NCBI GenBank assembly: GCA_965198235.1
Contig: OZ240248.1
Span: 1,184,001-1,248,000 of the forward strand
Reading direction: 5' to 3'
Source: Candidatus Poribacteria bacterium
GTDB taxonomy: Bacteria; Poribacteria; WGA-4E; WGA-3G
DNA: 64,000 bases
The notes beneath the pieces were generated by a model. The model was not told where the DNA came from and did no database searches. It saw nothing but the letters and a program-made list of their open reading frames with translations. Shown here in pieces: positions 3,781 through 53,452 of the stretch (positions within the stretch are counted from its first letter, which is position 1; every line of letters begins with the position of its first letter). A program made the position numbers and the translations under genes.

Positions 3781-4911
3781 ATGACTGGCATTTTGGTGCT
3801 CTGTCGATCCAGAGGAACTTGGAGGCGCGCGCTCCGTATTGGAATAAGTTGTGTTCTTTTCGGACTTTCAACGATACTCGCAAACGCAGATGGAGAGAAA
3901 ACGATGGCACATACAACGTATTCAGTAGCCGTAGAAACAGTAAGTGCCCTTGGGTCAAAATACCAAGTTTACTACATCCAGCAAGATGGAAAAGCTGTCG
4001 CTGAGATCGTGCCCGCACTTGGTAATAACTGCTACGCCTTTAAGGTCGCAGCTGGGGATACTTGGTTGAACCTGATAGATGAACCACCGGATCTCGCCAC
4101 CTTGGAGGAACGTCCGACCGCTTACGGCAATCCGATTCTGTTTCCCTTCCCCAATCGAATCCGGAACGGCAAATGGCAATTTGAGGGAGAAACCTATCAG
4201 TTTGACAAAGCACCCGACTCTCCAACAACAATCCACGGTTTGTTGTTGAATCTACCGTATCAGGTTGAAAGCCATGTCGCCGATGAAAACCGAGCAACGC
4301 TCGTATGCTCACTTAACTCTCAAGATTTTCCCGATGTTGGTCGCCAGTATCCGTTCCCTTTTAGAATTGAGATTACCTATACCCTCAAAGATACCGTGCT
4401 AACGATGGGGATTGCTATCAAAAATACGGGTGACCGGAATATGCCTGTTGGGTTCGGTATCCACCCCTATTTTAGCGTAGACCTCGGCACTGAGGCGAAT
4501 GCAGCCGAAGCGATAATTACCGTACCTGCCGCTAAGTATTGGGAATTGGACGAGGTCCTCGTGCCAACGGGTACACAGCACGATGTCGCTGACACACTGG
4601 ATCTCCAAAATGGACAGCCGTTCGCGAAACTGAAACTCGACCATGTCTTTACGGACGTTCAATTGGTTGATGGCGTAAGTCGATGCCTCATTGAGAACCG
4701 AGATACCGGATACGGCATGGTGATGGAATCGGATGCACAGTTCAGGGAGCTCGTTGTCTATACGCCGCCTGATAGGAATGCTATCTGTTTTGAGCCTTAC
4801 ACCTGCCCGACGGATGCCATCAATTTAGAGGCGAGGGATATCCCAGCAGGTGTGATTGTGCTTGCCCCTGATGAAATGTTCTCTGGAACCGTTCGCTTTA
4901 TGCTGCAATGA
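3781..4911 (+). CDS. Aldose 1-epimerase family protein (alternative start ATG 3904)
   Basis: LFPFPNRI.NG, IHG, YPFPF, GFGIHPYF, LDHVF, ICFEPYT. Confidence 0.9.
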   Translation: MTGILVLCRSRGTWRRALRIGISCVLFGLSTILANADGEKTMAHTTYSVAVETVSALGSKYQVYYIQQDGKAVAEIVPALGNNCYAFKVAAGDTWLNLIDEPPDLATLEERPTAYGNPILFPFPNRIRNGKWQFEGETYQFDKAPDSPTTIHGLLLNLPYQVESHVADENRATLVCSLNSQDFPDVGRQYPFPFRIEITYTLKDTVLTMGIAIKNTGDRNMPVGFGIHPYFSVDLGTEANAAEAIITVPAAKYWELDEVLVPTGTQHDVADTLDLQNGQPFAKLKLDHVFTDVQLVDGVSRCLIENRDTGYGMVMESDAQFRELVVYTPPDRNAICFEPYTCPTDAINLEARDIPAGVIVLAPDEMFSGTVRFMLQ

Positions 4912-5867
4912 AAGTTATCGCACTGCTGATTTTTTCGATTTTGCTTCTAACCGCGCAGCCGTCTATGGCAATCCGAGAGGGCACAACGACCGCTAAGGTC
5001 TTTATCAAACGCTACGCGCAGTCCGGCGATTTTGGTAGACTTGCCCTCTGGCACGAAGCCGCCGCAGAATGTCTCACGCGCATCTCTGTTCCGATGAACG
5101 AGATTGCACACGCTTATTATATACGGCACGGATACGAGCAGTGGGCAGCACGCGCTGAAAAAGAGGCGAGTGAGATTCAGAAACAGCACCAATATCACCT
5201 CACTCGCGCCGAGATTGCTTGGCAAAAATTTGTGGGAGGGGTGTTTTTGCTTGGGTGTTTCCCTAGTAACCCCGATGCTTTTTCGGTGCTGGATGCTGAA
5301 CGCCGAAATATCGAAAAATTTATCGCAACGTGGCTACCGCGCTACCCAAATCGGTTTTACGAATTTGGTATCTATCCCACCTTTTTCAGGAAACAGCGGG
5401 AGTTGGCAGAGCAGGAGGGGAGTTACGCCAAAGTCTTGCGTCTCGAAGCAGATGCCGCGGAGATGTGTGCCGCGCAGTATCAACAAATTCCAATCGTCCA
5501 TGGACTTAAGCGTTATGAAAAATTTCGGGATGCCTATCTCCGACATGCAATACACCTTCGCGAACTCGCAAAGCAAAATCCAATGACGTTACCACCAGCG
5601 ATAGACAAAGGCAAACAGATATTGGGTTCATTGAAAACTCAGAGGCTCCCTTCTCAGCAAAAAGCAGACGCTGTCATTCAGATCGCAAAATCGGATGCGC
5701 GAGTGAAAACAACTTTAGTCGGTCAAAACGGAGTTCACGCATATCCGTCATTTCAAGGGTTCGCGTGGATAGTGAGTTTCTCGAATCACAGTCGCGGGAA
5801 CCTTGCTACTGCAGTTATTGATGGTAAAACTGCCACGGTGTTGAATGTATTTTCCCCTGTGAAATAG
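4908..5867 (+). CDS. Hypothetical exported helical protein carrying an in-frame repeat insertion
   Basis: Signal peptide; ATGA overlap with the upstream stop; residues VGGVFLLGCFPSNPD are encoded by a REP plus an insert at 5232-5276. Confidence 0.7.
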   Translation: MKVIALLIFSILLLTAQPSMAIREGTTTAKVFIKRYAQSGDFGRLALWHEAAAECLTRISVPMNEIAHAYYIRHGYEQWAARAEKEASEIQKQHQYHLTRAEIAWQKFVGGVFLLGCFPSNPDAFSVLDAERRNIEKFIATWLPRYPNRFYEFGIYPTFFRKQRELAEQEGSYAKVLRLEADAAEMCAAQYQQIPIVHGLKRYEKFRDAYLRHAIHLRELAKQNPMTLPPAIDKGKQILGSLKTQRLPSQQKADAVIQIAKSDARVKTTLVGQNGVHAYPSFQGFAWIVSFSNHSRGNLATAVIDGKTATVLNVFSPVK

Positions 5868-6089
5868 GTAGGCGAGGTTTGTAACCTCGCCGGGCTTCCG
5901 TTCAATATCTCACTGTAGGAGGGATCTCCGAATCCCGACATCTGATCGCTGCCTCCACGCTGGCGGGGCTTCCGAACCTCACCTCTTTCAATCCTGTCGA
6001 TCCTGTGAATTGTGATTCTGACAATTAAAACCCTACACGCTCTATTAATGATAACTGAAACCGAAAACTATAGTGCCTCGTTTTTTGGG

Positions 6090-13074: not shown

Positions 13075-13279
13075 TGCTCCCTACTCCCTTGCAAACGCTC
13101 CGGCGACTGGGTTTGTTGATGGCAATCGGCAATCGGTGGTCAGCAGTCAGTAGTTTGCTGTGAGAATCAATCCGCCTCTCCCTGCTGGCGAGGTGTTTTG
13201 CTTGGGGTTTTTGCTTGGGGTTTTTGATAGGGTGTTTCTGTGGATTTCTGCGGATTTCCTCTAGTAACCTCGCCTCTTT

Positions 13280-15064
13280 TTAAGCGTCCTCAGGATACAT
13301 TTCCTCAATCGCATCCCCGTATCGCGCTATGATAACGTTGCGCTTTAACTTTAGCGTGGGTGTCATCTCATCCGCTTCTTGAGAAAATTCCTTATCGAGC
13401 AGCGTGAACCGTCGTACCTGTTCAAAGTCCGCGAAATCGGTTAAACGACTCCGGATTTCGCCTTGAATGAATTGTTGCACCTCGCGCGTCTCAAGCAGTG
13501 TCGCAAGCTCATCCGTCGCAACGTTATTCTCCGCCCCCCACGCCTTGAGTGCATCAAAATTCGGAACAATCAATGCAGCGAGATTTTTGCGTTCGTTTCC
13601 CACCAGCATAATCTGGTTAATAAAGGGACTTTGCACCAACACGCTTTCTATCGGTTGCGGTGCAACGTTTTTACCGTTGGAGAGCACAATGATGTTCTTC
13701 TTCCGATCAGTAATCTTAACGAACCCGTCCTCATCAATGATGCCGATGTCACCCGTATGAAACCAACCCTCTCCATCGATAACCTCTGCTGTCGCGGATT
13801 CGTTATTGAAATAGCCCTTCATGACGTGTGGACCACGGGTTAAAATTTCACCATCTTCAGCGATTTGTACCTCCACTCCGGGGACAGGCACGCCAACGGT
13901 TCCGAACCTCCATTGTGCTGAATGGTTCATGCTAATGACGGGCGAGGTCTCCGTTAAGCCGTACCCCTCCAAAATCAGTATCCCCGCCGCGTGGAAAAAT
14001 TCGGCGATTGATTGGGGTAACGCTGCGCCACCAGAGACGAAAAAGCGTAGCCGGCCACCCGTCGCCGCCTTCAATTTCGCAAAGACCAGTTTGTCCGCGA
14101 TGTTCTGCTGTAATTGCAAAATTGCAGACGGCTTTTTCCCCTTTTGAATCGCTGAACTGACGGATGAACCGACTGAGACACCCCAGTGGAAAATCTTCTG
14201 TTTGAGCGACGAACCTTCCTGCACGGCACGCAGAATTCTGTCATGCATGGTTTCATAGAGTCGCGGCACACTGAGCATCACTGTCGGAGCGACCTCCCGC
14301 ATATTCTGTGCGACCGTGAACGTACTCTCCGCATAAGCCACCTTCGCACCGGAGAACAATGGCACGTAGTGTCCACCGAGCCGTTCAAATACATGTGATA
14401 ACGGTAGGAACGACAACAACACGTCTGCATCATTGACATCGATAAGCGATTTACACGCCTGTAAATTTGAAATGAAATTCGCATGTGTCAGCATGACACC
14501 CTTCGGATCTCCTGTTGTCCCCGAAGTATAGATAATCGTTGCGATGTCGTCTTCGCTCGCGTAGGAGGGGTTTCTAACCCCGATTCCTTGTTCCTGTCCG
14601 TCCAGTTCACAGACTGCCTCAAATTGGATAACACCCTCTGGGCATTCACCTTCAATCGGGTCAAAGACAATTATCTGTTCAAGCGTCGGGACTTCATCTC
14701 GGATAGCGGTTACCTTCTCCAACTGCCTGCTCGTGGAGACGCAGATAATTTTTGATCCGGAATCTTTTAGGATATAACCGACCTGTGCCGCAGTTAGCGT
14801 TGAGAACATTGGTACGGTTACCGCACCGGCTTTGAGGCTACCGAAATCCGTGATTGTCCATTCGGGGCGGTTCTCGGAGAGAAGCGCGACCCGATCGTCC
14901 TTTTGCACCCCTAAGGCAGTTAACCCTTTACTAAAAGCGTCCACCGATTCGCCGAGTTCAGTGTAAGAGATGTCTTGATAAGTGCCACCTTTCGGTTTAT
15001 GTGCCAATGCCGGTTTACTACCGTAGTGTTGGATTGAATGTTCTAACATGGATATCAGTGTCAT
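13280..15064 (-). CDS. Long-chain fatty acid-CoA ligase (AMP-binding)
   Basis: IIYTSGTTGDPKGVMLTH, SFLPLSH, EGYGLTE, GWFHTGD, DRKK...NGKNVAPQ, TPTLKLKR. Confidence 0.95.
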   Translation of the reverse strand: MTLISMLEHSIQHYGSKPALAHKPKGGTYQDISYTELGESVDAFSKGLTALGVQKDDRVALLSENRPEWTITDFGSLKAGAVTVPMFSTLTAAQVGYILKDSGSKIICVSTSRQLEKVTAIRDEVPTLEQIIVFDPIEGECPEGVIQFEAVCELDGQEQGIGVRNPSYASEDDIATIIYTSGTTGDPKGVMLTHANFISNLQACKSLIDVNDADVLLSFLPLSHVFERLGGHYVPLFSGAKVAYAESTFTVAQNMREVAPTVMLSVPRLYETMHDRILRAVQEGSSLKQKIFHWGVSVGSSVSSAIQKGKKPSAILQLQQNIADKLVFAKLKAATGGRLRFFVSGGAALPQSIAEFFHAAGILILEGYGLTETSPVISMNHSAQWRFGTVGVPVPGVEVQIAEDGEILTRGPHVMKGYFNNESATAEVIDGEGWFHTGDIGIIDEDGFVKITDRKKNIIVLSNGKNVAPQPIESVLVQSPFINQIMLVGNERKNLAALIVPNFDALKAWGAENNVATDELATLLETREVQQFIQGEIRSRLTDFADFEQVRRFTLLDKEFSQEADEMTPTLKLKRNVIIARYGDAIEEMYPEDA

Positions 15065-21252: not shown

Positions 21253-21626
21253 TTTCTCTACTGACACGCTTTGTAAATGCCCATTCGCAAAATTCAACTT
21301 TCTAACTATGGGAATCTGTTAACCATCGAAGAAACACCCAAGCAAAAACACTTGTGTTTTAACATCTATAATGGAGTCGAGTTGATGGTTAAACTGCTCT
21401 ACTACGTTCCTTGCCCCTCCCAGTAACGGGCGGGGACCCCGGTTTTCGGTGAATTCCAACCCGCTCCAGATGCGCAAAGGTTTCTGATTTCACCAGGAAC
21501 CATCGTGAAACGAAATTAGGTTTCCTTAAATGGCATAATTTTGCTTCGCAGTGTCCCGCAAGCCTCTATAGGCTTGCGCAGAATGCTTTACATTTGGAAC
21601 GATGCCCAGGGGCTTATAAATTAAAA

Positions 21627-23386: not shown

Positions 23387-23396
23387 CTGATAATCC

Positions 23397-24621
23397 ATGC
23401 GAAACACGAACCATAAACTTTTTGATGATAAAACTTTGTGTCACTTGCACGATGACCTGAATATCTGTGGCGTTGTCAAGAACCATTTTCTGGCACTCGC
23501 TATGCGATATTACCGCAGGTATGGTAAGGGACTTTCGTATTCCAAAATGTCGAAGCACCTGACGAAACTCAAGAGGCTTGAGAAGTATAAGCACTGGAAT
23601 ATCCCATACTCATGGGCATTACAGAATGTCCTCAAGCGTCTGGCACAAAGTTTCAAAGAAATGAAAACGTTAGGCAGAGGCCACCCTCAATTCAAGTCCT
23701 GCAAGAAACACAAAGGCATGACGTTTCGGGGTGAACAGGTTAAGATTGAAAAAGTTTTGGACGCGCAGAAAAACGAAAGAAACCACCCGACGTATAAAAT
23801 CCGATTGAACGGACGTTGGTATCGTTTTGCATTACACCGTGAGATAAAAGGCGAAATCAGCCAAGTTCAAGTGACAAGGGACGCACTCGGAGACATGTAT
23901 ATCACCTTCACAGAAGATTACTCGGAAGTGATACTCGAACCCAAGACGGGTAAAGCCGAAGGGTTCGATATGGGTATCAAAGACTTCCTGACTGGCAGTG
24001 ACGGCAAACGATATACCTCTCCGATGTTCTATAAACAGAACGCCAAGACATTGGCAGAAGCACAAAAGTCGTATTCCCGAAAGGTGAAAGGGTCTCAGAA
24101 TCAAGAGCGAGAACGCAAAACTGTTGCGCGTATTCATAAGAAGACTGCGAATCAAAGAGCAGACCACCATTGGAAACTCGCAATAGAGTTGTGTCGGCAG
24201 TTTGATATCCTGTTCTTTGAAGTGTTTTTGCTTGGGTGTTTCGCTTCGCGGTATGAAAAAACTTTGGGGTCAACAGGTTTCTGACCTCGCCTTCGGTGAG
24301 TTTATGCAGAAACTCAAACACCAAAGCAAAAAACGTATCCGTTCTGTGCTGAAGGTTGATAAATGGTCGCCGACCACAAAAGCCTGTTCTGTTTGTGGAC
24401 ATAAAAATGATACTCTCACGTTAGCAGATAGAGAATGGCAGTGTCGAAGTTGTCATACACACTTGGACCGAGACCAGAACGCTGCTATCAATATACTTAA
24501 GGAGGGGGTAGCCTCCTTTGGGTTAGGTGTCGTAAGACCTATCGTTTTGTTCAACAAAATCGTAGGCTGCTCCGTTGAATCGCACAGTCCGATTCTGAAT
24601 TCCACAAGCCTTTCGCGTTAG
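23397..24621 (+). pseudogene. tnpB: TnpB RNA-guided nuclease, frameshifted at 24222-24243
   Basis: RuvC-I GFDMG and RuvC-II FFE in frame 1; CSVC/CRSC zinc finger and DRDQNAAINI in the next frame; the frameshift is caused by a foreign insert. Confidence 0.88.
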
Positions 24622-30850: not shown

Positions 30851-30923
30851 GGGGGTGTAGCTCAGCTGGGAGAGCAACTGCTTTGCACGCAGTAGGTCAG
30901 CGGTTCAACTCCGCTCATCTCCA
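30851..30923 (+). tRNA. tRNA-Ala (TGC)
   Basis: GGGGGTG/CATCTCC acceptor stem with G3:U70; ACTGC-TTTGCAC-GCAGT anticodon arm; GGTTCAACTCC T-arm; CCA not encoded. Confidence 0.95.
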
Positions 30924-31008
30924 TCGCCTATAAGCGTAATACGCTATAAATAGGCATTGTTCTTTGACAATTGTATATAGAGGGTAAATCGGTAGAAAAA
31001 ATTATGAT

Positions 31009-33993
<2,985 letters not shown>

Positions 33994-34132
33994 TTCTTTT
34001 CTTCTACCGACCCCTCACACATATACAATTGTCAAATATTCTTGTAACGGCTCAGCAACATCAGCAGACTCTGGCTTTAAACAGCCTCTAAAGCAGCCAC
34101 GAGCACGCTAACCCTGAGCCATACAAAGAACT

Positions 34133-34251
34133 TTCCGGTGGCTATAGCGAAGGGGACCCACCCGTACCCATCCCGAACACGGTAGTTAAGCCCTTCAGCG
34201 CTGATGATACTTCGGGGGCGACCCCGCGGGAAAGTAGGTCGCTGCCGGGAA
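34133..34251 (+). rRNA. rrf: 5S rRNA
   Basis: TTCCGGTGGC...CCCATCCCGAACAC..AGTTAAGCC...GAAAGTAGGTCGCTGCCGGGAA. Confidence 0.95.
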
Positions 34252-52803: not shown

Positions 52804-53452
52804 AAAATGTCTTCTCCGTTAGAGCGGAGCAAACTCCACTCTTTCATCTTTGTTTTCTTACCAATTATACACGCGATTGAGGCGAATGTAAAGCGTTTGT
52901 TTTCCTGTAGGCAGGGCTATTTAGTTTTCCATTTTTTGCGACATTTTTGGATAACCAAACCCGGTAGGAGCGGTTTGATAAGGTTTCAATAAATATTTCG
53001 GTAATTCTACCCCAAAAATCATTGTAGGGGGTTTTTGCTTGGGGTGTTTTTGCTTGGGTATTTCTGCATATTGATAGGTGTTTTTGCTGTAGGAGCGAGT
53101 TGTACTCGCGACGTTCATCGACCGCTGACTGCTGATTGCCAACGGTAGGAGGGATCTCCAAATCCCGACTTATCCCATACAATCGGCAGGTGGCAAGGTT
53201 CTAACCTCGCTTACCATAATCCCCTTCCTTTGCTGGCGAGGTTTCTAACCTCGCTACCCACAACCCTCCTTTCTTCGCTGGCGAGGTTTCCCAACCTCGC
53301 CTCGTCCCTAACGCAACCCAAGATAAACGCAGTAAGGGGAAAAACACAACCGGTTGCTTCCCTATACTTACGAGAATCAAAATGTGAAAAATAATTTCAC
53401 AATTTAGCACTTTATGCATCACATATCACGCTTTAGATTCTCCTCCTTGTTT

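Follow-up and report, generated by a model that had tools for sequence, protein, structure and literature searches.

We report that a 64,000-nt stretch of a Candidatus Poribacteria genome contains five copies of a very small inserted repeat, here called the stutter insert, which belongs to a family of 267 loci in the same genome. This stretch, the window, is C1:1184001-1248000 of genome G000, which has 5.17 Mb in two contigs (C1 and C2), 48% G+C and a completeness of 96.3%. The insert begins exactly behind a G-rich left flank, ends raggedly and grows into arrays of short units. We put forward, with a probability that we place a little short of even, that it is a non-coding, non-palindromic micro-element similar to the small dispersed repeats (SDRs) of cyanobacteria and that it is copied by templated synthesis primed at G-runs.

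A family of short inserts with a unit grammar

The stutter inserts are real and statistically solid. A 10-mer core of the insert has 294 matches in 225 places of the genome where about 10 matches are expected, the seeds of the other units lie 50- to more than 1000-fold above expectation, and in the window an 11-mer core with at most one mismatch gives 10 matches against 1.43 expected, a number reached in 0 of 100 shuffles. A multi-seed scan of the genome, in which a locus had to have at least two seed matches, gave the 267 loci, of which the plus strand carries 145 and the minus strand 122, with a median core of 17 nt and a maximum of 164 nt. The copies are strongly conserved in sequence among themselves. 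At 148 of the 267 loci the insert has its minimal form of about 21 nt, which consists of GTTTTTGCTTGGGTGTTTC followed by two pyrimidines, that is, a 17-nt core plus GT and YY (Y, pyrimidine; R, purine; K, G or T).

The longer forms are arrays of 13-15 nt units followed by 10-12 nt units, and these obey a grammar. The array opens with at least one first-type unit, GTTTTTG-(CTT/ATA)-GGG, at times with an extra G or T, the first-type units are followed by (T/C/G)(G/A)TTTC, and this in turn by zero or more second-type units (TGCGGATTTC, TGTGGATTTC, CCTGCGGATTTC or TGCGTATTTC), with a hybrid unit, TGCGTATTG-CTT/ATA-GGG, leading back to first-type units. One unit gives way to the next solely after GGG or TTTC. 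Specifically, GGG is followed by TTTTTG (91 cases), TGTTTT (51) or TGTTTC/TATTTC/CGTTTC (271), and TTTC by TGCGGA (97), TGCGTA (49), CCTGCG (34) or TGTGGA (25). The internal junctions copy the left junction of the insert. There are 92 architectures over the 267 loci, and the cores longer than 40 nt (72 loci) are mostly of one-off architecture. No hairpin or self-complementarity was found in the insert, the two ends, GT(T)TTTG and TTTCYY, do not form inverted repeats, and Rfam has no family matching at the copies. The GC skew of the chromosome is irregular and no strand pattern of the copies is seen along it.

The five copies in the window lie at 5245, 13196, 21331 (minus strand), 24226 and 53033. 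They are listed below with their hosts, several of which are repetitive extragenic palindromes (REPs) or miniature inverted-repeat transposable elements (MITEs), and with the intact (empty) REPs of the window.

5232..5242 (+): REP3 hairpin 5' arm with GTGG head, GTGGGAGGGGT
5243..5266 (+): 24-nt minimal insert, GTTTTTGCTTGGGTGTTTC plus CCTAG
5267..5275 (+): REP3 3' arm, TAACCCCGA
5868..5891 (+): intact REP1 with GTAG head and loop TTG (GGCGAGGT-TTG-TAACCTCGCC at 5871-5891; -11.3 kcal/mol, z -4.3)
13187..13194 (+): REP1 hairpin 5' arm, GGCGAGGT, its last bases, G-G-T, being the R-G-K target end
13195..13264 (+): 70-nt stutter insert of three 13-nt first-type units, GTTTC, two 10-nt second-type units and CTCTAG
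13265..13274 (+): REP1 hairpin 3' arm, TAACCTCGCC, partner of the 13187..13194 arm
14561..14583 (+): intact REP3 with loop TTC, GTAGGAGGGGT-TTC-TAACCCCGA
21328..21349 (-): minimal insert (GT, 17-nt core and TTC) in a MITE (family MITE6), within the 3' arm of its long stem
24223..24243 (+): 21-nt insert, TGTTTTTGCTTGGGTGTTTCG, in a TnpB gene, substituting ACCTCAAC between GAAG and CTTC
53031..53088 (+): insert of two first-type units plus degenerate units, after the GTAGGGG head of one family of repeats, right next to an intact REP2
53089..53112 (+): the intact REP2, GTAGGAGCGAG-TTGTA-CTCGCGAC, source of a second TGTAGG

The first-type units of the 70-nt insert are two of the GCTT kind and one of the GATA kind, and its second-type units are TGTGGATTTC and TGCGGATTTC. 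The insert at 24223-24243 frameshifts the TnpB gene such that the OrfB_IS605 domain lies in the upstream frame and the Cas12f1-like TNB domain in the downstream frame, and a second TnpB paralogue (C1:2576407, about 80% identical) is filled at the same site. The TnpB-only element itself (window 23394-24618, plus strand; about 1.4 kb with OrfB_IS605 and Cas12f1-like TNB) has 13 other near-full-length copies in the genome at 74-81% identity. Two of the REPs coincide with reading frames: the filled REP at 5232 falls within a 319-aa open reading frame (ORF; 4908-5867) without Pfam match, and the intact REP3-like hairpin at 14561-14583 sits in the coding sequence of an AMP-binding enzyme (ORF 13280-15064, minus strand; Pfam AMP-binding, E 1e-89).

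An exact start and a ragged end

Flank statistics were taken from the 233 loci whose core opens with a first-type unit and closes in TTTC; left out of this set were 25 two-seed loci with only an 11-nt first unit, at least six of which resemble chance matches. The flanks were grouped into 91 clusters, or into 107 context representatives that we count as independent contexts. The left junction is exact, with G at -2 and T at -1 in 217 and 216 of the 233 loci. For 43 loci in 12 clusters true empty paralogues exist, and in these the inserted DNA opens with GT (or TGT) plus TTTTG. At the right junction of the same 43 loci, 0-8 nt of the target are lost (nothing, C, T, CG, TT, CA, GTTG or ACCTCAAC) and the insert ends in TT, TTC, TTCA, CC, CCCA, CCCTA, CTCTAA or G; YYCAR at this junction is seen in just 37 of the 107 contexts. 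Clean 21-nt insertions occur at GCGCAGG^CAGATA and, beside an empty tandem copy (L112), at GTAGGGG^CAGGTCTTG. No target-site duplication was found at any of the 43 sites. In three host families the empty copies have CG where the filled copies have CA just past the insert (GGAGGG-CG-GATC against ..TTCA-GATC, GGGG-CG-ACATC against ..TTCA-ACATC, and AGT-CG-GGATTC against ..CCCA-GGATTC), a CA that may belong to the insert, may be required of the target or may mark a subfamily.

An exact start together with a ragged far end fits synthesis primed from one side. To this extent the idea that cuts are healed by templated synthesis, put forward in an earlier note on this stretch of DNA, agrees with the junctions, although the mechanism as such is unproven. 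The same note described a 3-nt loop segment as replaced by the insert. It is the case that empty relatives carry TT where filled ones carry GT..YYCTA, but this difference reads equally as replacement or as insertion plus a small loss.

A G-rich left flank is shared by nearly all insertion sites

In 98 of the 107 contexts the left flank reads R-G-K at -5/-4/-3, followed by the GT, against a chance level of about 6% by a rough estimate. Such R-G-K ends are found in REP 5' arms, REP GTAG heads, hairpin 3' feet, MITE stems and a TnpB gene, and we conclude that the G-rich left flank is the common denominator of the sites. The loci are concentrated in non-coding DNA: by crude ORF calls, 191 of 264 chromosomal loci (72%) are intergenic in a genome whose non-coding part is 14.6%. 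They are also concentrated in repeats, with a 40-nt flank recurring elsewhere in the genome at 181 of 267 loci as compared with 124 of 400 random non-coding points. The orientation relative to flanking genes (74 vs 58) is not significantly biased.

About a quarter of the inserts (some 63-67 of the 267 loci) lie between the arms of five GT[AG]G-headed REP families. The counts for these families are as follows; a few of the copies entered as filled have long spans and no insert in the loop.

REP1: 113 empty, 29 filled
REP2: 44 empty, 11 filled
REP3: 58 empty, 10 filled (2 of the 10 being long spans, not loop inserts)
REP4: 53 empty, 11 filled
REP5: 14 empty, 6 filled

The fill rate is thus about 15-20% of copies across the five families, and REP loops are real hot spots for inserts. 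Other contexts are GTAG heads (18 of the 107), positions after a 3' foot where the G-run is the 3' arm itself, outside the loop (for example CCCC-AGC-GGGG^), and the 3' arm of the MITE6 stem, in which empty copies read CACGAGT-T-GATGG (18 empty, 12 filled). The element is also nested in its own reverse-complement copies at GAAACACC^CAAGC; clusters 9 and 14 hold 8 such loci, and for 4 of these an empty site was aligned. Since one and the same host family has both empty and filled copies, the insert is more than a fixed component of its hosts.

Hairpin loops are enriched and hold a minority of the copies

The earlier note had proposed that the inserts sit precisely in REP hairpin loops. The observations from which it set out are partly borne out: the intact REPs at 5871 and 14561 have the TTG and TTC loops between their arms as described, and 70 nt and 24 nt, both ending in CTAG, do lie between the arms at 13187 and 5232 in REPs of two families. 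The insert also abolishes the hairpin, since the region of the filled REP1 (13170-13290) folds no better than shuffles (z +0.43) and the intact REP has the low z value listed above. Two further observations read differently now. The TGTAGG seen twice at 53023 is not a duplication, for the two head different repeats, the GTAGGGG-headed family with the insert and the intact REP2, and the copy at 21331 is inside an inverted repeat, the MITE stem, but in its 3' arm and not in a loop.

Genome-wide, loops were counted by a strict test with at least 5 contiguous pairs enclosing the site, at most 3 nt left on the left side and at most 12 nt on the right. Loop insertions by this criterion number 40 among the 233 loci (17%) and 16 among the 107 contexts (15%), as compared with 4% at 2000 random sites, 4% at 2000 R-G-K^Y-A-R sites and 9% when right flanks were swapped between clusters. 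Foot-type hairpins are as frequent at the sites (12-13%) as in controls (13-15%), and 70% of loci and 72% of contexts are neither loop- nor foot-type. A test for enclosing pairs in the minimum free energy (MFE) structure gave 62% of loci (51% per independent context), 56% with swapped flanks and 47% of random positions with at least 4 enclosing pairs; it and a longest-stem test were dropped as poor discriminators given the high value for random positions. The claim of loop insertion therefore stands as an enrichment of roughly 2- to 4-fold, yet one that concerns only about one site in six. As a determinant of insertion the hairpin does not hold up: inserts lie beyond the stem, inside the MITE6 arm, at GTAG heads and in TnpB coding sequence as well. 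It should be noted that the residual loops of filled REP1 copies are in the purine-rich orientation (TAG.., AAGG..) in 27 of the 27 that are readable, and never TCC/TCT, and that a site preference GGT^TAG accounts for this orientation without recourse to hairpin geometry. The hairpin-loop rule is hence a partial view of the G-run rule.

Distribution across genomes and candidate enzymes

An exact 19-mer of the element was counted in 121 genomes of the phylum (44 of the same genus, 32 of the sister genus and 45 from 17 other genera). It occurs in 41 of the 44 genomes of the genus, with 0-94 copies per genome and the highest number, 94, in G000, in 2 of the 32 sister-genus genomes (1-3 copies), and in 0 of the 45 others; the reversed pattern, taken as control, gave 0 in all 121. 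Not even a degenerate version was found in G073, G089 and G117 of the same genus or in G046 and G052 of the sister genus. REP1 hairpins are abundant in insert-free genomes (84 in G073, 19 in G089 and 57 in G046), and because such REP1-rich genomes exist without the insert, hairpins plus host nucleases are not sufficient to generate it. Orthologous genes are 76-92% identical across the species, and the same 19-mer is nevertheless common in most species sampled.

In a wider collection at least 113 stretches have a match to the element, and of the 80 listed nearly all are Candidatus Poribacteria metagenome-assembled genomes (MAGs) from several assemblers; the remainder include one Pyrinomonadales MAG and two other bacterial MAGs. 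The Pyrinomonadales match (L073) has a context without a G-run and is probably due to chance, about 4 chance 19-mer matches being expected in the collection by our estimate. A 32-mer form was found in one Joint Genome Institute (JGI) metagenome, on 3 contigs, and a single match to the 19-mer in viral contigs has the ordinary G-run context. The element is thus restricted to one Poribacteria genus of sponge symbionts, independently of REPs and of the gene considered next.

The earlier note had called for a search for genes of REP-associated tyrosine transposases (RAYTs) and of SbcCD. G000 has six Y1_Tnp genes, three of the IS200/IS605 type and three RAYT-like ones with a YIENQETHH motif. The latter are each flanked by REP hairpins of the type GCACTCCAGCGGAGTGC followed by TATGTC.

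C1:606798-607310 (-): RAYT-like Y1 gene
C1:1898748-1899239 (+): RAYT-like Y1 gene
C1:3853649-3854149 (-): RAYT-like Y1 gene

The pattern Y---Q--HH is given, in part of one account of these enzymes, as the signature of Y1 subclass 1.2, whose members generally lack the terminal secondary structures of the IS200 type (PMC6006769), and the YIENQETHH motif fits this signature. Of 36 genomes of the genus, 26 have the RAYT-like protein, as do 21 of 37 in the sister genus. Its presence does not follow that of the element: G073 has the protein but 0 copies of the element, and G081, G095, G103 and G108, with 55-93 copies, gave no match to it at E<=1e-20; in G081, with 93 copies, a search with PF01797 gives just two weak Y1 matches. 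SbcD_C (PF12320) was not found in G000, a search that did not extend to SbcC or to Mre11-like phosphoesterases lacking that domain. The search thus did yield RAYT-like genes, but no SbcD_C and no co-variation, and the proposed link to REP biology and its nucleases is not supported, nor do the REP1-rich genomes without inserts speak for it. RVT_1 was not found in G000 nor in four of five element-rich relatives (G081, G095, G018 and G006) and is present in the fifth (G103), and neither Ku nor Prim-Pol was found in G000.

Copying of variants and turnover

An identical 56-nt insert of five units is present in 3 unrelated contexts, and a 52-mer and a 40-mer are each present in 2. Because identical long variants occur at unrelated sites, the architecture must at least sometimes be inherited from a donor copy. 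In 63 orthologous intergenic regions where another species carries the 19-mer, 0 copies are shared in the same host repeat and position; among the regions listed, 50 have no element in G000 and 13 have it in a different host repeat or position. Since none is shared, the copies are younger than the species. The spacer orthologous to that of the 13187 copy contains other repeats or none in 9 relatives and provides no filled/empty pair for the same REP. No syntenic master copy was seen in the 63 comparisons, which by our estimate had an about even chance of sampling it if there is one per genome.

Contig C2 (43,879 nt) is a strain variant (haplotig) of C1:775,767-815,774 and is 99.3-100% identical to it over 40 kb. 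What distinguishes the two is an indel of 230 nt that includes a MITE (C2:16419-16648), a small insert of 41 nt (C1:789087-789127) and numerous indels of 1 nt. Public read sets gave short unitigs that break at repeats.

Hypothetical mechanism and alternatives

Based on these data we propose the following mechanism for the stutter insert. The primer would be a DNA 3' end finishing in R-G-K, which may lie in REP arms, GTAG heads, hairpin feet, MITEs or genes. It would pair with the equivalent G-run of an existing copy, either next to that copy or within it, and be extended along it. Re-alignment at GGG or TTTC during the extension would give the stutter, and the new strand would rejoin the target imprecisely, with a few target bases lost and the right end left ragged. 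Copies residing in REPs and MITEs would then be multiplied with their hosts, and their unit numbers would drift by slippage. The family, its grammar, the target bias, the junction asymmetry, the distribution and the turnover are observed; that such ends prime, that the template is DNA and that no dedicated enzyme takes part is what we infer. It is rather doubtful, in our estimation, that one may go further and regard the insert either as an enzyme-free selfish DNA of about 21 nt, primed by exposed G-rich 3' ends at stalled forks or breaks, or as the product of an undescribed genus-specific machinery that is DNA-templated and target-primed. If the former were true, no replicating genetic element known from bacteria would be smaller than this heritable, self-amplifying scar.

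Several points weigh against copying by G-run-primed synthesis. The identity of the 19-mer across species suggests, on sequence grounds, recognition by a conserved factor that is sequence-specific, which an enzyme-free model does not foresee. The motif alone cannot explain the choice of site, because R-G-K followed by Y-A-R occurs at about 16,000 sites per strand, and the copies nested in their own reverse complements (8 loci) have the left flank ACACC and not R-G-K. Much of the copy number may come from hitch-hiking in REPs and MITEs, so that the count of independent events is uncertain, and the comparison of C2 with C1 shows no difference made up of the element alone, so no insertion event was caught.

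The alternative that survives best, although we consider it unlikely, is a dedicated protein (a transposase, a recombinase or a nuclease-ligase) that recognizes the ends of the element and moves or copies it in true transposition, as may hold for the cyanobacterial SDRs. It would explain why the 19-mer and other units are identical in sequence across many species of the genus, as well as the exact start with its strong left-flank preference, the identical long variants at unrelated sites and the all-or-none distribution across genomes of one genus. Such a protein would have to act on an element with neither inverted ends nor hairpin nor target duplication, and the ragged right end with its loss of 0-8 nt is unlike the products of cut-and-paste, HUH or site-specific enzymes. 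The candidates tested also fail, in that the RAYT-like Y1 protein does not co-vary with the element and G081, with its many copies, offers only the two weak Y1 matches.

We give a distinctly smaller chance to the mechanism proposed in the earlier note, in which SbcCD or a RAYT/HUH enzyme cuts REP hairpins once they are extruded, templated synthesis heals the break, and the inserts are scars of this repair. By the criterion that the note itself set, loop enrichment over all genomic copies, this mechanism is already weakened. The filling of five REP families between their arms, the roughly 4-fold excess of strict loop contexts over random sites and the presence of Y1_Tnp genes, three of IS200 type and three RAYT-like and flanked by REPs, speak for it, and the junction asymmetry fits healing by synthesis. 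It does not accommodate the large majority of loci that are neither loop- nor foot-type, the inserts outside the loop where the G-run is the 3' arm, or those in a stem arm, in GTAG heads and in a gene. Nor does it agree with the search of G000 in which SbcD_C was not found, the RAYT-like gene that fails to co-vary, or the REP1-rich genomes G073, G089 and G046 that have no insert.

It is less probable still that the insert is a functional site under selection, such as one bound by protein or RNA or a U-tract by which hairpins become terminators, and that it owes its spread to REPs and MITEs alone. The intergenic position of most loci and the strong sequence conservation among copies could be taken in this sense, and after hairpins such as CCCC-AGC-GGGG the GTTTTTG start does resemble the T-tract of a terminator. 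Against this, 0 of 63 orthologous sites are shared, the orientation to flanking genes is not significantly biased, the inserts destroy REP hairpins (z +0.43 vs -4.3) and break a TnpB gene, and host families have empty copies alongside filled ones. Least probable, and indeed very improbable, is RNA-templated addition of G/T repeats onto G-rich 3' ends by a reverse transcriptase, be it telomerase-like or with a rolling template of the type of defence-associated reverse transcriptases (DRTs) or retrons, since RVT_1 was not found in G000 or in four of five element-rich relatives, no syntenic template copy was seen in the 63 orthologous comparisons and Rfam has no match at the copies, even though the units are telomere-like, G/T-rich and restart after a G-run and the precise initiation junction with a variable far junction is as in target-primed reverse transcription.

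Several features of the stutter insert constrain its mechanism: an exact start after R-G-K, a ragged end with small target deletions, stutter at GGG and TTTC, variants passed on from donors, no reverse transcriptase detected and no RAYT that co-varies. The natural contrast between 41 carrier and 3 non-carrier genomes within one genus makes the question of what moves such tiny DNA directly testable.

Relation to known systems

The closest known kind of element would appear to be the SDRs of the Nostocaceae, a family of cyanobacteria, from which Elhai et al. in 2008 reportedly described SDR1-8 with lengths of 21-27 nt. To our knowledge the mechanism of their spread has never been explained, and by this analogy the stutter insert would be a new form of a known but unexplained kind. 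The likeness consists of the very small size (21-24 nt in the minimal form here, comparable to the length said to hold for SDRs), of many dispersed non-coding copies nested in other repeats and, as far as excerpts of the SDR literature describe it, of precise insertion into short targets with filled and empty hosts (here 43 loci in 12 host clusters, with 8 host families counted). One such excerpt has the SDR5 module inserting between the 3rd and 4th nucleotide of highly iterated palindrome 1 (HIP1) (PMC4390886). The comparison is one of descriptions and not of SDR sequences, and there are differences: the phylum is an unrelated and uncultured one and the element is confined to one Poribacteria genus, it is G/T-rich and not self-complementary, and it is modular, with unit arrays of up to 164 nt and a ragged right junction. 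The literature that we found on Poribacteria with repetitive extragenic palindromes, and on SDR5 and Nostoc, reports no such Poribacteria element.

The relation to GTAG REPs and RAYTs (Di Nocera 2013, PMC3733652; Quentin 2018, PMC6006769; Bertels and Rainey 2011, PMC3116915) is one of host and guest. Among published REP families there are some whose loops are long or variable. Here about a quarter of the inserts have GT[AG]G-headed REPs as hosts, and REPs flank the RAYT-like genes. The insert itself is no imperfect palindrome and lacks a GTAG head; it also occurs well away from REPs, and its presence follows neither the RAYT-like gene nor the REPs. Palindrome-associated transposable elements (PATEs) and similar derivatives of IS200/IS605 have subterminal hairpins at both ends and, without duplication, insert on the 3' side of a fixed sequence of four or five nucleotides. 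The stutter insert also prefers its R-G-K without duplication, but it has no hairpins, its right end is ragged and target bases are lost. It differs from MITEs in having neither terminal inverted repeats nor target-site duplication, and from the RNA-templated systems (telomerase-like enzymes, DRTs and retrons) in the RVT_1 result given above.

Priming at short homologies, stutter by re-annealing, small joint deletions and occasional inverted copies recall end joining of the Pol-theta type, synthesis-dependent microhomology-mediated end joining (SD-MMEJ) and template switching. The scars of those processes, however, copy nearby sequence and are unique to the event, whereas here one family is found at hundreds of sites in dozens of species; Ku and Prim-Pol were not found in G000, and no search for a Pol-theta-like gene was made. 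The BOX elements of Streptococcus pneumoniae are likewise short, non-coding and modular, with one module that varies in number, and the variable unit number of the Poribacteria element resembles them in this. BOX modules are 45-59 nt long and form stable structures, and we know of no case in which they nest precisely after the G-runs of other repeats.

Other repeats and neighbouring features

By disrupting REP hairpins and at least one TnpB gene and by inflating the intergenic repeat content, the inserts matter for the assembly and annotation of sponge-symbiont genomes. Other very small inserted repeats are present as well, at C1:789087-789127 and at many more loci such as C1:3727171 and C1:1052303. 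One of them is a piece of about 41 nt ending in ..TTTGCTTTACAT, placed before GGAGG in one MITE family, and another micro-repeat, starting with TTGCAATGTAATACAAGGAATGG, lies inside stutter inserts. The genome seems prone to nested micro-insertions. A MITE of about 100-130 nt (GTAGCCCGTAA..GGAGGG..TACGG..CCGCAAGGAAAATTAAAAA) often ends in a Shine-Dalgarno-like AAGGA right before an ATG (many loci, for example L016, L028, L097, L108 and L113, and C2:16419-16648) and may supply translation signals to the downstream gene. A CRISPR-like repeat array at about C1:2,734,500-2,738,000 has a 22-mer at least 56 times at a spacing of 50-90 nt; a link between CRISPR and the stutter units was rejected, the array repeats of the genome being unrelated to them. 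In the window, tRNA, 23S rRNA and 5S rRNA genes (Rfam) occupy 30851-34250 on the plus strand, with no 16S match anywhere in the window.

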